A DNA stretch of 64,000 nt from Tricharina praecox (GCF_024521635.1 NW_026250409.1:930001-994000); one strand, 5' to 3'; positions 18,090-24,612 are shown, numbered from the stretch's first letter. Translations and numbers: made by a program. The notes: generated by a model not told the origin, from the letters alone.

Positions 18090-18571
18090 TTATGAGAAGA
18101 ACACAGCCCTCGGATCTGGTCATTTCCGTCAGCACTTGGCACCACATCATCCGCACCCGCAATCATGTGACAACATACCCAGTGGTCTGCCATCCGGCGC
18201 GATGCCGTTCCGCGCCAGCTTCTGCTCGACGGCGATCCGTCGTGCCTCGTCGAAATCGACGCCCCGTCGCTTCATGATGGCGAGGACCTCGCGCTTCGCG
18301 GCTACGTCGAGCCCGCTCCGGCTGTCTTCGTCGTCGATGTTCGCCGTTAGGCTGAAGGTGTCGCTGTGAAGGCCGGCTTCAAGGTCTGAGCTGAAGGAGG
18401 AGGACGAGGTGATCATCGGCAGCCAGGAGGTGCGGTAGATGTAGAGTGCTGTGTGGAGATACGTGGTTAGTGCTGGGGGTGAGGTAGGTGCGGAGGAGAA
18501 AGCTTACCAGTGGAGAAGGCCATGAAGACGAAGACGTAGGACCAGAGCATGTAATGATCCGTCAAGGCCAT
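18090..18571 (-). CDS. DUF2015/UPF0357-like small membrane-anchored protein, 3 exons
   Basis: Hydrophobic N-terminus, SFSSDLEAGLHSDTFSL..NI..DSRSGLD, IMKRRGVDFDEARR, NGIAPDGRPLDPRAVFFS*. Confidence 0.85.
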
Positions 18572-20715
18572 GATTGCGGATTGCGGGAGGGTTTTGTGTA
18601 CGTTGAGATGTTGTAAAAGGGAGTCCTGCAGTGCTATGAAACAAGGAAATGCGGAGCTGTAGGGAGGTAGTATGCAAGAAGGCGGAGTTCAAAAATAGTT
18701 GTGCGTTGACGCGAGGTAGGTAGTTAGGTACAACTTGGTAAGGCAAGGGATGTAGGGGAAAGGAACGTGAAGCGGCTTTTTTGAAAAGCAGGTTGTGTTG
18801 GTTTGGTTGGTGGAAGGTGGGTGCAAGTGGTGAGACTTGGAGATGAATTGCGTGGCCGACGACTGGGGGGTGTGGGAGGCAGTGCATGACGACTGGTGGT
18901 GGTGCGAGCGCCGAGAACGGCACGCGCTATGCTAAATACGGGCATGAGCGGGGGGCGCTTGGAGGCTGAATCCTGATGGAAGGGTAAGGCTTGGGAGATC
19001 CCCGCCCATGCTCCGGCCACGCGCGCGGCGAGCGGGGAGGACGGACCTAGGGCTGCATGCGGTGATGTGCGGCGCATCTTCTGGGGCAGAGATCTGCATA
19101 TGCGCTTCAAGGTCTATGATACATACATAGAATGATAGAGTCTAGTGTACCAGTAGTTCAGTGCACACTACACACCCGCAAGTATTTCTATCGTTACTTC
19201 AGGGTGGCGGTCTGGAGTTTCAGTTCACGGCGATCGTGATGTGTCGGGTGCTCGGTTCGACTTCCACGGAGTTGAAACAAGACGCCAACCTCTCCTTTTC
19301 CCTCACGCAGTTGTAACTTGGAAGTGCTTTTGTCGTACTTTTGTCGTGCGGATTTCCATCTCGATGTAGCCAACGTGTACGATTCAACCGACGAAACACG
19401 CCAGAATGTTTCAAGTGTGCCGAGGGGGCTCCGCAGTCTGCGAGGTCGTGAAAAGGAGTGATTGTCAGCTTACATCGGTTGGATACCTTTCAACAGATGT
19501 CAGTTCCTGCCGGAACCGCATGATACCGTTTCGAAAGCTGCACGTCAACAACCATCAAGGCCAACAACAGGAGGCCACTTCACTCCGGACTGCTCGTCGA
19601 TGCTTCTCCTCGTAAAAAAGTTTCGGTCATCATCTTCGAAGGAGAAGTGAGAAGATGGCCGGCCGGCGGCACGGCATGAGCGGCGAGTGCGGCCAGCCAG
19701 CAGCTGCCGGAGGACTCAGGAAGCCGCCACCGGGCAGCTGAACCTGATGGAGTTGTGCCCATAGCTGGAAAAAGCAAGCGTGAATGCATATCGGTATCAA
19801 TGCTATCCAGACTCTGGAGTGGAGCGGGAAGAAGCGAGGAATGTGTCTATGTACTCTAGATGCCTTGGCGATATGTACCCACATCTATCAGACACCTTGA
19901 AGCCTTGGCCGGGCTGTAGTCTCGTGATGTTCGATTAGGTGTGTAAGTAGACGGATAAGCTCGTAGGCGTCTCAAGGGGAAGTGCAAGGGAGTAGGAGAG
20001 TGTAAATTTGTGGGATGTGAGGGTTGATATTATGCGTGTTTTTGCCTGTTCCGGTGTCACTGCTACTTTTCCGTGTCCTCTGTCCTTTTGCATCGTCGCA
20101 TACAGCCTTCATGGCCTTCGTGGCTTCCTTGCATTGTCACTGGCTTCTCACCAGAATAAGCCTCTTCAGGCTCCCAGCCCGAGTCCGGCGACAGCTATCG
20201 TCGCATCCTCTGTCCGAGGCCCGGCTTCATCTTGTTGTTTACACGAGCTCGTTTTTCTACAAGCAGTCTCCTTTCTCATCTTTCTCGTATCGTTCTATAA
20301 TCAAATCAAGTTCTTCTCCCAGTTTCAATAGTGAGGTCAAACTAACGCCGAGTGCTATGGCGAGAGTGGCGGAAAAAGGGTGGTTACGGCCGAGAGTCTG
20401 CCACCGCATCACAAGCCAGCCTTCCTCAGCCTGTCGGCATGTGGAAGGTACCTTGCTAGGTAGGACTTCCTTTCTAGCCTCCAACCCTTCATTCGCATAC
20501 AACCGCTGGGCTGAATATTGTGGCGATCTAAAGGAATGACGTCAGTCACCTTGGGGGCCTCATGGGAGTAGTTCCCCCAAGTCTACCGGCACCAGTAGAG
20601 TAGACGTCAATACGTAGAGATCAACGACGTCACTAATAATGAAGACGATCCTTATTTGGCGAACTAGGCTTCCGTCCCTGTCCCTGGACAGACTCCATGC
20701 CTGTTTATCTCCGTT

Positions 20716-20848
20716 CGAATTCCTCATCCTCCATCCCCCAGAGCACCCACTATCGCCGAATTCCTCATCCTCCATCCTCCAGAGCACCCACTATCGCCGA
20801 ATTCCTCATCCTCCATCCCCCAGAGCACCCACTACACCGCCGAATTCC
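20716..20848 (+). repeat. 41-nt tandem repeat, 3 copies plus a partial fourth
   Basis: cgaattcctcatcctccatcc(c/t)ccagagcacccactatcgc starts at 20716, 20757 and 20798, with a partial copy at 20841. Confidence 0.9.
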
Positions 20849-20919
20849 AACATCACGATCAGGTGCGTACTACCAATCAAACCGGCAAACGATAGTTCAC
20901 ACACTGCTGTCTCGAAAAC

Positions 20920-21598
20920 GTGACCATCAATCACAACATCAGCTCCGATCTCATCTAGGAGATCGCCAGCAATGGTTCCTCTGTATGAACGCCTTCACTA
21001 GAGAAAATCGTGTAGCCAACCTCAGCTTAGGTACATCGTCAAGCGGGGCTCAAAAGCTCCCATGTTCTCCAAGGAGCCTCCGAACCTGACCAATGTGCGC
21101 AACCGCATGGCAACTCGTACGCAGATCGGTTGGGGATATGTTCTGACGAGTGTGTAACAATCCGGGTCCGTCAACGAGAATGTCGTGCTCCTGCAGTAGC
21201 CGCTGGTATTGGTGATGTTTTTGTTTGGCTCATCGGAGAATAGGCCATTGGAGTCCAACATGCGCCTGGCGAGGGTGGTGTTATCGGTACATCAACCCAA
21301 CTGTTTTTTTCTTTTCTTCCGCAGCGGCACGACTGACACGTCCGAATAGTAATCATCAAGCACGACTGTGAGGACAGCAGCCAGAAGCCTACCGCCCTCT
21401 TCCAAGAGAAGGAGTTCGAGAGGAGAAACCGCGGTGCCTATTCCACGACCACCAACTTCTCGACCAAGAACCATTACCGCCCCGACCTCGTCCAGGTATC
21501 ATTTCACTTCCGCCGGATTCATCCTGGGGGTTCCGACATTTATATACAGGACACTGCCGCCAGAACTAGCGCAACCCCCCACTCGCATAGAGGTGTGA
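20920..21598 (+). pseudogene. Decayed, intron-retaining pseudogene of 60S ribosomal protein eL28 (L28e)
   Basis: Exon relics read NISSDLI*EIA / YIVKRGSKAPMFSKEPPNLTNV / SGSVNEN / AIGVQHAPGEGGVI / IIK...QKP...NHYRPDLVQ / AARTSA, colinear with eL28 (S.DL.WE, FS.EP.NL.N, SG.VN.KAIGV, YRPDL..AA.RASA). GTG in place of ATG at 20920, TAG at 20956 where Trp is expected, damaged splice sites. Confidence 0.85.
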
Positions 21599-22839
21599 AG
21601 GAATCCCACGGGAAAGCGAACCGTGGATCAAAGGGAAACGAAGTGGGGACCGCTGAGGCTTGAGCTCTCAGTAGCTAGATGTGGCTGGCATGCGCCTGCT
21701 GCACTAGCGTGTACCGTAGCTTTGGAAGGGAAGTGGCCGGACCAATAAATGGGGATAACCGGAAGATCTGGCGTTCTTTGTTGCATGATTCCGTGCTGTC
21801 TTTCCTCCGTCCGCCGGCGCCGCCGCGGTTGTTCCGAAAAGAGGGATAACCGTCGTTGCAGGCGGCGGGTGTCCCGTGCAAATAGTTATTCCGTCTCTCT
21901 CCGGTAGCGAGAATTCCCGATGGATTTTTGGGGCCCCAGCCGGGGAAGCTGGCTGCATAGCCGAACATGCCTCGGAGGATCGGAGTGTAAATCCTCTAGT
22001 TGGAGCAGATCGTCTGCCGGCTGCAAGGCTGTTTCCGGCCGGTTGAGGCCCGTGGCGCAGCTTCTTTGCTTGTTGACGATGGTGATGGTCGTGGTGATGG
22101 TCGTGGTGATGGTGACACTGGGGGTGATAGTGGGATTGGTGGGGGTCTGCCGATGGAGTGCAGCTGCCCGTGGGGAGCTGTAGATGAGGGTACCTATTTC
22201 GTAAAAATTCTCCATGCGCCGAACTCCCGCGCCGATGCTTGCGGCCGTATTGATGCTGTCAAACATTGGGGGTAAACGCGGGATACGGATATCGAGATGG
22301 TATGTGCTACCACCGCCAAACTCCGCACGAAAAAAACACCTGCTGTCACAGGCTGAAGTCAATGTGGCGATGGATGGATGGGGAAGCGGATCGAAGACCT
22401 CATGTGAAGTAATATGCGGAGTTCTGCAGGCAGAGTGGCATCCATCCATCGCATCATCACCACCACCACCATTATCACCATGATCATCGCGGCGAGCTTC
22501 ACCTCTATGGTTGCTCTAGGTGGGGAGTTGATCCCTGCGATGCCGCCATTTTAATTCTGCTAGACAAACAACCACCACCACCAGCACCCAACCTACCACG
22601 ACCACTACCCAAACTAACCCCTCCTTCCTTGGAGCCATGCACCCACATGTATGCGTAGAGGAGAGTTGTCCGCCGTCGTCGCCGAGCTTATTTACCCCAC
22701 CATCCACATCATCTCCTCCTCTTCCTTAAGATAAACCCCATCCCACCCTCAATCCAACAATCAACACAGCCCCTCAGCTTCTCTTCATCACCTCATACCC
22801 ACTTCCCATTCTTCATCCATAACTCCTACTACCGTCAAA

Positions 22840-24188
22840 ATGGTCAAAGCTGGTACGTTCATATCCACCGGATGCGGAGGGAGGATGCGTGCTGCCATCA
22901 TCGCGGGCGGTTGACTGACGCGCAAAACAGCTGTCCTCGGTGCTGCTGGTGGAATCGGCCAGGTAAACGACGAAGACCCCTCTTTACCCCTCAGTGGGAC
23001 AAGGCAGGGGCAACGGTTTATTGACACGGTGTAACCATCTGTAGCCTCTGTCCCTCCTCCTCAAGGCCAGTCCCCTCATCGACGAGCTGGCCCTCTACGA
23101 TGTTGTGAACACCCCCGGTGTCGCGGCCGATCTTTCCCACATTGCCTCCCCGGCTGTAAGTTTGCCCCGAAGAATCAACATCCATCTCCCCCGCGTCCAG
23201 GACTGACAGTTTTCGCCGCCCGCCGTAGGTCACCACCGGATACCTCCCCAAGGACGACGGACTGCAAAAGACCCTCGAGGGATGTGACATCGTTGTGATC
23301 CCCGCCGGCCTTCCCCGCAAGCCCGGTATGACCAGAGATGAGCTCTTCACCAAGAACGCCGGAATTGTCGCCGCCCTGATCACCGGTGTCGCCAAGTGGT
23401 GCCCCAAGGCCTACGTCCTGGTCATCTCCAACCCTGTCAACTCCACCGTTCCCATCGCCGCCGAGGTGCTGAAGGCCCACAACGTCTTCGACGCCCGCAA
23501 GCTCTTCGGTGTCACCACCCTGGATGTCGTTCGTGCTTCCACCTTCACCGCCGAGCTTACCGGCGAGAAGGACCCCCGGAAACTCACCATCCCCGTCGTC
23601 GGTGGACACAGTGGTGACACTATTGTTCCTCTGTTGAGCCTGGCTACTCCTTCTGTCTCGATCCCCGATGACAAGATTGAGGCTTTGATCAAGAGTGAGC
23701 CATACACCCCCCACTCCACCGTCAAGCTCCATCGGCTAACAAACCCCAGGAATCCAATTCGGTGGTGACGAGGTCGTTAAGGCCAAGGATGGCGCTGGAT
23801 CCGCCACTTTGTCCATGGCTTACGCTGGTTACCGCTTCGCCGAGGCTGTTCTCAAGGCCGACAAGGGTGAGACCGGTATCGTCGAGCCTTCATTCGTCTA
23901 CCTTCCCGGTGTTCCCGGTGGAGACGAGATCTTGAAGGCAGTTGGTGGTTTGGAGTACTTCGCCGTTCCGATTGAGCTCGGAGTATGTATCCCACTTTTC
24001 AGGAATCCTTCCTTCCATCCGCTAATACTCGATGTGTGCAACAGCCCGGTGGTGTCGTCAAGGCCACCAACCCTCTGGGCAAGGCCTCGGACGCCGAGAA
24101 GAAGCTATTGGAGGTTGCTATTGCTGGCCTCAAGGGCAACATCTCCAAGGGTGTCGAGTTCGCCCAGGCCTCCAGTGCAAAGTTGTAA
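22840..24188 (+). CDS. NAD-dependent malate dehydrogenase, no mitochondrial presequence, C-terminal PTS1 (-AKL); multi-exon with small 5' exons
   Basis: [91 protein letters not shown]; ends QASSAKL*. Confidence 0.96.
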
Positions 24189-24612
24189 TCCCAACTTGGT
24201 TCGCTTGTTTCGAGTGTGTAAATCAAACAAAAGCTGATGATGATTCGGTTGTGATGTACAGTTAATCAATCAATCCTGCGCACAATCCTTTTTCCTCTCT
24301 CTTTTTTCCTGCATCGGTCTCAACGGCGGGTTCGGATGAAACAGTTGCATGATACCAAAGTTTTTTTGTTGAGGAGGAAGATGGAAAGGTGAGGGGAAAC
24401 GGTGGATGGTATTTGCTGCTTGAGTTCTTACATGGCAATAACGATATCAAATAAAAAAGTCATTGCGCCAGTCGCCAGTTCCATGCAATATCAAGATGAA
24501 GAAAACAAACAAAACCGTGAAGTGTGACAGTGACAAATTTGTGGTTCGCAGCAGCAGCAGTAGTAGGCAGAGTATAGCTGTAGCTGAGTTCCCCCTCTCG
24601 TCCCGCCTCCGT

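Follow-up and report, generated by a model that had tools for sequence, protein, structure and literature searches.

The window, that is, the whole 64-kb stretch of Tricharina praecox DNA that was analysed, carries six exon relics of a gene for the ribosomal protein eL28 on its plus strand at 20920-21663, with the peptides spread over two frames (as read from the sequence, the stop-to-stop ORF table and the three forward frames). They lie between an exon of a DUF2015/UPF0357 gene and the exons of a malate dehydrogenase (MDH) gene, and a tandem repeat sits just before them (Table 1). A preliminary description of the sequence had already recognized six relics colinear with eL28, and the profile alignment supports this from end to end at 102 bits. 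The end that it gave at 21598 has to be corrected, because the TGA there belongs to another frame; the eL28 frame extends 65 nt more, to a stop at 21661-21663.

Table 1. Features of the eL28 relic and its surroundings, numbered from the first letter of the window
Feature	Position	Strand	Description
DUF2015/UPF0357 exon	18150..18503	-	Pfam PF09435, E 5.8e-28; conserved divergent neighbour
41-bp tandem repeat	20716..20848	+	3.2 copies, 94% matches (Tandem Repeats Finder); transcript 5' leader, just upstream of exon 1
RNA-contig cover, minimum span	20789..22000	not given by contigs	X2 extends about 455 nt past 22000
Exon 1 relic	20920-20982	+	Aligns to profile positions 5-22; GTG at 20920-22, TAG at 20956-58
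Intron 1	20983-21031	+	GTATGA...TTAGG; RNA excises 20983-21030
Exon 2 relic	21032-21109	+	LVKR...FS..P.NLTN motif region; Pfam PF01778, E 0.0086, profile positions 12-37
Intron 2	21110-21157	+	48 nt; GC donor GCAACT; GTGTAA end, where AA replaces acceptor AG; CTGAC branch site kept
Exon 3 relic	21158-21181	+	24-nt micro-exon; profile alignment
Intron 3	21182-21243	+	62 nt; GTCGTG...AATAG; ends formally intact
Exon 4 relic	21244-21286	+	ORF table and profile alignment
Intron 4	21287-21349	+	63 nt; phase 1; GTACAT...CTGAC...AATAG; removed in RNA
Exon 5 relic	21350-21495	+	YRPDL motif, common to eL28 chains in PDB
Intron 5	21496-21549	+	54 nt; GTATCA...ACAG; phase 0
Exon 6 relic	21550-21660, then stop TGA 21661-63	+	Tail aligns with Trichophaea eL28 tail
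Malate dehydrogenase (MDH) exons	23229..24234	+	Pfam Ldh_1_N, E 7e-25, and Ldh_1_C; one exon 23229-23765; tandem downstream neighbour

Homology, introns and lesions of the relic

Intact eL28 genes for comparison came from a degenerate motif scan of metagenome contigs, which yielded 53 loci; the motif lies within an eL28-like frame in 53/53, and three of the loci are cDNA-like full-length genes. One cDNA-like Dothideomycete locus was used as protein query and returned 397 matches among 447 candidates, and the best 120 of these 397, all of which carry PF01778, were made into a profile of fungal eL28. For this comparison, a script spliced the relic at the exon coordinates and wrote X for the stop, and the resulting 155 residues scored 102.2 bits against this profile (E 1.3e-33 for one target), in a colinear alignment that spans positions 5-150 of 155. 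With a profile of the three cDNA-like genes, a version of the relic that then held one extra codon reached 68.6 bits, versus a maximum of 10.3 bits in 2000 shuffles (1906 scored). Pfam, with its cut-off of 33.2 bits, was run on unjoined pieces: exon 2 alone gave 17.1 bits (one of four pieces matched), and with stops written as X one of three pieces matched, weakly. The annotated 104-aa protein model of the locus gave 25.6 bits, which also lies below the cut-off. In the PDB, 31 of the 34 chains found at E<=10 are named L28, eL28 or L28e (best E 1.9e-4), and PF01778 is common to 27 of 30 feature matches in the Atlas. The preliminary description had proposed a significant match of the spliced relic to an L28e HMM as a check on the pseudogene call; our own 120-protein profile provides that match, and the Pfam result concerns unjoined pieces only. 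The homology of the relic to eL28 exceeds chance, and the colinear match over the whole domain identifies it as Ribosomal_L28e/eL28 (PF01778) by descent.

The intron layout was compared with that of the 53 intact fungal loci. Intron 2, the 24-nt micro-exon and intron 3 of the relic amount to 134 nt, and in 31 of the 53 loci the profile matches break after the HSRK-equivalent position and resume after 115 to 174 nt of unmatched sequence, which is the arrangement of introns 2 and 3 and the micro-exon of the relic. Six other loci have the second of those introns only, and 16 have neither. Counterparts of relic introns 1, 4 and 5 were not found among the 53 metagenome loci, which have introns near profile positions 19 and 99 instead. 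Three of the loci (L001, L017 and L047) form an eL28 lineage that is 60 to 61% identical to the nearest named protein compared and has a single intron near profile position 65. With five introns, two of them at positions used by 31/53 intact loci, and with a syntenic location, the relic does not have the features of a processed pseudogene, as had been argued beforehand from its retained introns; it is confirmed as a well-preserved, intron-bearing, non-processed eL28 pseudogene.

The lesions named in the preliminary description are all present. GTG stands in place of the start codon, and no in-frame ATG occurs between the upstream stop (20893-95) and the relic, while the TAG in exon 1 occupies a column that is Trp in at least 90% of the 120 eL28 proteins. 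At intron 1 the phase is broken because the acceptor AG at 21029-30 leaves an extra G at 21031 before the eL28 frame, and intron 2 has lost the usual bases at both of its ends. A functional gene would show an ATG, an open spliced frame and the N-terminal Trp; here we found GTG, TAG and a spliced mRNA that is +1 out of frame past exon 1. Exons 3 to 6 contain zero stops and zero frameshifts, and introns 3 to 5 keep GT..AG. A rough neutral estimate of about 0.15 substitutions per site gives about three expected stops versus the one seen, a difference too weak to separate neutral decay from residual constraint. The stop-free 3' part is thus compatible with chance, and also with some past or present constraint.

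If the original states were ATG, TGG, AG, GT and AG, all five lesions would be transitions, two of them G-to-A and three A-to-G or T-to-C. The G-to-A changes had been read as RIP-like or as methyl-C deamination. However, they make up only two of the five lesions, and no RIP signature was found in the relic, in which TpA/ApT is 0.61, (CpA+TpG)/(ApC+GpT) is 1.13 and G+C is 0.532, versus medians of 0.68, 1.12 and 0.54 in the 64-kb window. Since the indices lie at the window medians, the RIP-like reading is unsupported.

Transcription and splicing of the locus

Nine runs matched 20500-22000, and contigs from four of them were aligned to it, namely X1 (DNA) and X2, X3 and X8 (RNA, with X2 and X3 labelled so by guess); X4-X7 and X9 were left out, as small word shares are uninformative. 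Such contigs give no strand, ends or level and drop rare isoforms, and their depth values cannot rank expression; likewise, the part without RNA cover at 20500-20703 is not evidence of a transcript start. The X2 contig of 1588 nt and the X3 contig of 1070 nt, which come from two studies, extend from about 20800 to 21920 or further. The only joint in either contig removes 63 nt with GT..AG ends, corresponding to intron 4, and introns 1, 2, 3 and 5 are retained in both. The X1 DNA run is unspliced and reads straight through intron 4, so the joined form in X2 and X3 represents RNA. The soil metatranscriptome X8 has a 209-nt contig in which 20982 is followed directly by 21031, with 48 nt skipped between GT..AG ends, and which then reads through intron 2. 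With intron 1 spliced there at the shifted AG, the message retains G 21031 and departs from the eL28 frame by +1.

The relic locus is therefore transcribed and partly spliced. The pattern is not that of a functional gene: intron 2, with its GC...AA ends, remains in each of the three RNA contigs that span it (X2, X3 and X8), and introns 3 and 5 are retained in 2/2, with the proviso that minor isoforms may escape contigs. RNA contigs break and stack at the repeat at 20716-20848, where short 71-nt contigs have higher depth. The X2 contig runs far past the relic stop, into a region with minus-strand ORFs at 21886-22515 (209 aa) and 21704-22258 (184 aa), and for neither of these was a Pfam match found. 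The records of X2 and X3 carry different organism codes (A and B); each run contains the stretch at 99% or above, with the same spliced form.

Ancestral position and lineage of the relic

Gene order was examined at the 53 metagenome loci, many of which have short flanks. A DUF2015/UPF0357 homologue lies upstream of the intact eL28, on the opposite strand, in 25/53 loci, with order and orientation agreeing in all 25, and it is present in 21 of the 35 loci that have at least 1000 nt upstream. On the other side, an MDH homologue lies downstream on the same strand in 14/53 loci, consistently in all 14, and in four of the six loci with at least 1600 nt downstream. Both neighbours are present in L002 and L003, and the nearest named proteins of the loci with neighbour matches belong to several different orders. 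The adjacency of intact eL28 and MDH, which the preliminary description had suggested looking for in relatives, thus occurs in fungi. For the upstream side, a published survey of gene order enters [quoted passage not shown] among the divergent gene pairs conserved in fungi (PMC2871058), and the L28e-UPF0357 pairing is reported from Pezizomycotina to Taphrinomycotina. From the shared neighbours, their strands and the published pair, we conclude that the relic lies where eL28 ancestrally stood, between DUF2015/UPF0357 and MDH, with order and strands matching in all the loci that have a neighbour on either side, as is expected of a unitary pseudogene. This synteny is not universal, since L001 and L047 have long flanks without a DUF2015 and without an MDH neighbour.

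The spacer between DUF2015 and the relic (18504-20919) measures about 2.4 kb, where the 25 loci with an intact gene have 0.4 to 1.0 kb. It may hold inserted or decayed sequence, and no Pfam match was found for its long ORFs at 20021-20536, 19996-20328 and 18727-19113. Between the relic and MDH there are tandem repeats at 22080-22113 (12-bp, 2.8 copies) and 22569-22616 (21-bp, 2.3 copies), both short and coding-like; according to the frame, they give runs rich in His/Asp/Gly or in Thr. A 159-aa protein of Chlorociboria aeruginascens (P0206) has an eL28 domain and is named "malate dehydrogenase"; it looks as if the name had been carried over from the gene next to it, in keeping with the adjacency of eL28 and MDH.

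The relic is 50% identical to eL28 of Trichophaea hybrida (P0123), 44% to that of Ascodesmis nigricans (P0125) and 40% to that of Kalaharituber, and its identity to 120 other Pezizomycotina proteins (the best 120 of 397) ranges from 29 to 42%, with a median of 35%. In a FastTree analysis of 214 rows, the relic grouped with Trichophaea and Ascodesmis (support 0.94), and the group was nested in a clade with Kalaharituber (support 0.94). To judge from these comparisons, the relic belongs to the Pezizomycete eL28 lineage. It shares with the Trichophaea and Ascodesmis proteins the motifs SSYIVKRG, FSKEP.NLTN, QSG.VNE.AIG.Q and YRPDL.QD and a similar length. In contrast to these two proteins, which are 68% identical to each other, it is not translatable and has a long terminal branch of 0.92, about eight times the median of 0.11 among the other 213 tips, whose maximum is 0.52. 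It retains 44 of the 62 columns that are identical in three Pezizomycetes and 32 of the 51 columns that are at least 90% conserved, a pattern consistent with even, unconstrained decay. Four metagenome loci (L002, L014, L043 and L049) with the common "NLTNV" and a 48-nt intron 2 were considered as Pezizomycete loci and rejected, as their nearest match is a Helotiales protein with 79 to 83% identity.

Proposed loss of eL28 and the alternatives

The search for another eL28 used a relic-weighted profile, which combined the public model with exon 2 of the relic and with nine pieces of canonical exon 2, each of 31 residues, and had a C-terminal half made from the relic only, so that matches were ranked by their likeness to the relic. 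It returned 527 matches among 585 candidates, of which the best 120 were listed. Among these 120, rank 1 is the locus's own model, rank 2 is "ribosomal L28e/Mak16, partial [Trichophaea hybrida]" with 80 bits and rank 4 is Ascodesmis nigricans with 74 bits; Kalaharituber has 57 bits and an Orbiliomycete 58 bits, and the rest are other Pezizomycotina at 55 to 77 bits. No other T. praecox eL28 protein appears among the best 120 of 527 matches, and a profile search found no second eL28 within the 64-kb window. Any working eL28 of T. praecox is expected to be no less similar to the relic than the Trichophaea protein is, and hence to stand near the top of the matches listed, if it is annotated; a protein search is blind to an unannotated gene or an assembly gap. 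Pyronema, Sphaerosporella and Wilcoxina, which had been expected, are not among the best 120 of 527 matches either, and the search may miss relatives or these may be outside the collection. The best 120 of the 397 matches to the Dothideomycete-locus query include no Pezizomycetes.

A unitary pseudogene is an orthologous gene that is dead in place and has no functional paralogue. The relic is like this class in that disabling lesions lie in the T. praecox syntenic orthologue and relatives keep the gene; it differs in that the absence of a paralogue, which defines the class, is only probable here, with no other T. praecox protein among the best 120 of 527 matches, where Trichophaea ranks second, and no second eL28 in the 64-kb window. 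It does not have the features of a duplicated pseudogene, because it lies at the ancestral locus and has no second copy in the 64-kb window and no parent among the best 120 of 527 matches. The preliminary description had left the choice between a dead duplicate and a loss in progress; the ancestral position and the lack of a second T. praecox eL28 among those 120 matches fit the loss better and speak against the duplicate.

The most likely reading is that eL28 has been lost, since the copy in decay is the one at the syntenic position and the matches listed include no other eL28 protein of T. praecox. A second copy is probably absent from T. praecox, and we lean towards the view that this fungus, perhaps with near relatives, has truly lost eL28, which would be an independent loss within filamentous Ascomycota. 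The lineage's own gene would have died in place at the DUF2015/UPF0357-MDH locus, where five point lesions in its first third would block eL28 production. The start codon would have been lost to GTG and the conserved Trp codon turned into the stop TAG; the intron-1 acceptor, one base early, puts the spliced mRNA out of frame, and the ruin of both intron-2 splice sites (GC...AA) would keep intron 2 in the RNA. The promoter would still be active, with a non-coding, partly spliced transcript as its product, and the relic would have decayed neutrally. This Pezizomycete lineage would then build its 60S subunits without eL28, as budding yeast does.

A sizeable, if lesser, chance has to be given to relocation, in which a working eL28 arose elsewhere by DNA duplication or retroposition, the syntenic original then decayed and the ribosome keeps eL28. 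The protein occurs in every other Pezizomycotina class sampled, three Pezizomycetes included, and the search for another copy was confined to the best 120 of 527 protein matches and the 64-kb window. The branch length of the relic also indicates that the cell has long been without a working copy at this locus, which is easy if a spare exists. However, an annotated functional copy would be expected to rank with the Trichophaea protein, and neither the matches listed nor the 64-kb window holds one. Moreover, eL28 is not indispensable everywhere: it is described as missing from yeast ribosomes (PMC7479938) and from those of Giardia and Vairimorpha necatrix (PMC10123126).

It is improbable that the locus is functional in a new form, either as a truncated eL28-like protein or as a regulatory non-coding RNA. 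Transcripts of the locus occur in three RNA runs, one from each of three studies, its exons 3 to 6 are open and its introns 3 to 5 have kept their GT..AG ends, and NCBI has a model for it, a 104-aa "hypothetical protein" of Tricharina praecox (P0001) that is the exact translation of 21062-21116, 21350-21495 and 21550-21660. However, the junction 21116-21350 that this model needs is absent from all RNA contigs examined (X2, X3 and X8); the frame of Met 21062 ends at TAA 21155-57 in the contigs seen, and the open 3' frame 21244-21660 has no Met. The predicted structure of the 104-aa protein is unfolded (pLDDT 0.40, pTM 0.16), and its structure matches in the Atlas were discarded as meaningless. 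By phmmer, no relative of its kind was found among 1.84 billion representatives, only the protein itself and P0002, a protein of 1060 aa made up of about 14 nearly identical repeats with a high content of Pro, Arg, Ala and Thr, which was set aside as a compositional match; a protein search with the ORF 21337-21660 likewise gave the 104-aa model as its sole match (1/1 candidate). In addition, residues conserved in eL28 have been lost at about the same rate as the others. It seems that the locus is better described as a pseudogene, the public model being unsupported by the RNA contigs.

That the gene is intact and only looks damaged through errors of assembly or sequencing is hardly credible: although the best DNA source, X1, may be the window's own sample and hence not independent, contigs of four runs from three studies (X1, X2, X3 and X8) span the lesions without listed differences, save one other letter per X8 piece, five separate lesions together with 50% protein divergence from the nearest relative, Trichophaea, cannot be base-calling noise, and the independent NCBI model avoids exons 1, 3 and 4.

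Under the preferred reading of a true loss, T. praecox resembles S. cerevisiae, Giardia and V. necatrix, lineages that lack eL28, a large-subunit protein specific to eukaryotes, and can dispense with it. In contrast to them, T. praecox keeps a recognisable, intron-bearing, transcribed relic at the ancestral locus, and its eL28-free ribosome is a prediction. The gene of Caenorhabditis elegans offers another comparison, as it shares with the relic an unusually low identity to relatives and continued expression as RNA; however, that gene is described as diverged but intact and translated (PMC11482609), whereas the relic lacks a start codon and carries a premature stop, a splice that shifts the frame and a defunct intron. 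The same account states that eL28 stabilises an ES7L helix and is "not universal across eukaryotes" (PMC11482609), and co-evolution of the protein with expansion segments 7 and 15 has been proposed (PMC10123126). We found no paper on eL28 in Pezizomycotina, on unitary ribosomal-protein pseudogenes in fungi or on the relic locus.

Few eukaryote-specific ribosomal proteins are missing from entire lineages, and eL28 is among them, being absent from budding yeast, Giardia and a microsporidian; the gene has vanished there, so the path to its loss can no longer be traced in them. In T. praecox, a free-living filamentous ascomycete, the dead gene is still legible, with its neighbours, intron layout and promoter activity kept, and its close relative Trichophaea keeps an annotated full-length eL28; therefore, the event can be dated and studied. 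If a moved copy exists, the locus would be a clear-cut example of a ribosomal protein gene that has changed its place. If the loss is true, it would be a datable, independent loss of eL28 in a free-living filamentous fungus, and T. praecox and Trichophaea would form a natural before-and-after pair for learning how the 60S subunit manages in its ES7L region when eL28 is missing, and what eL28 and its rRNA partner ES7L contribute.
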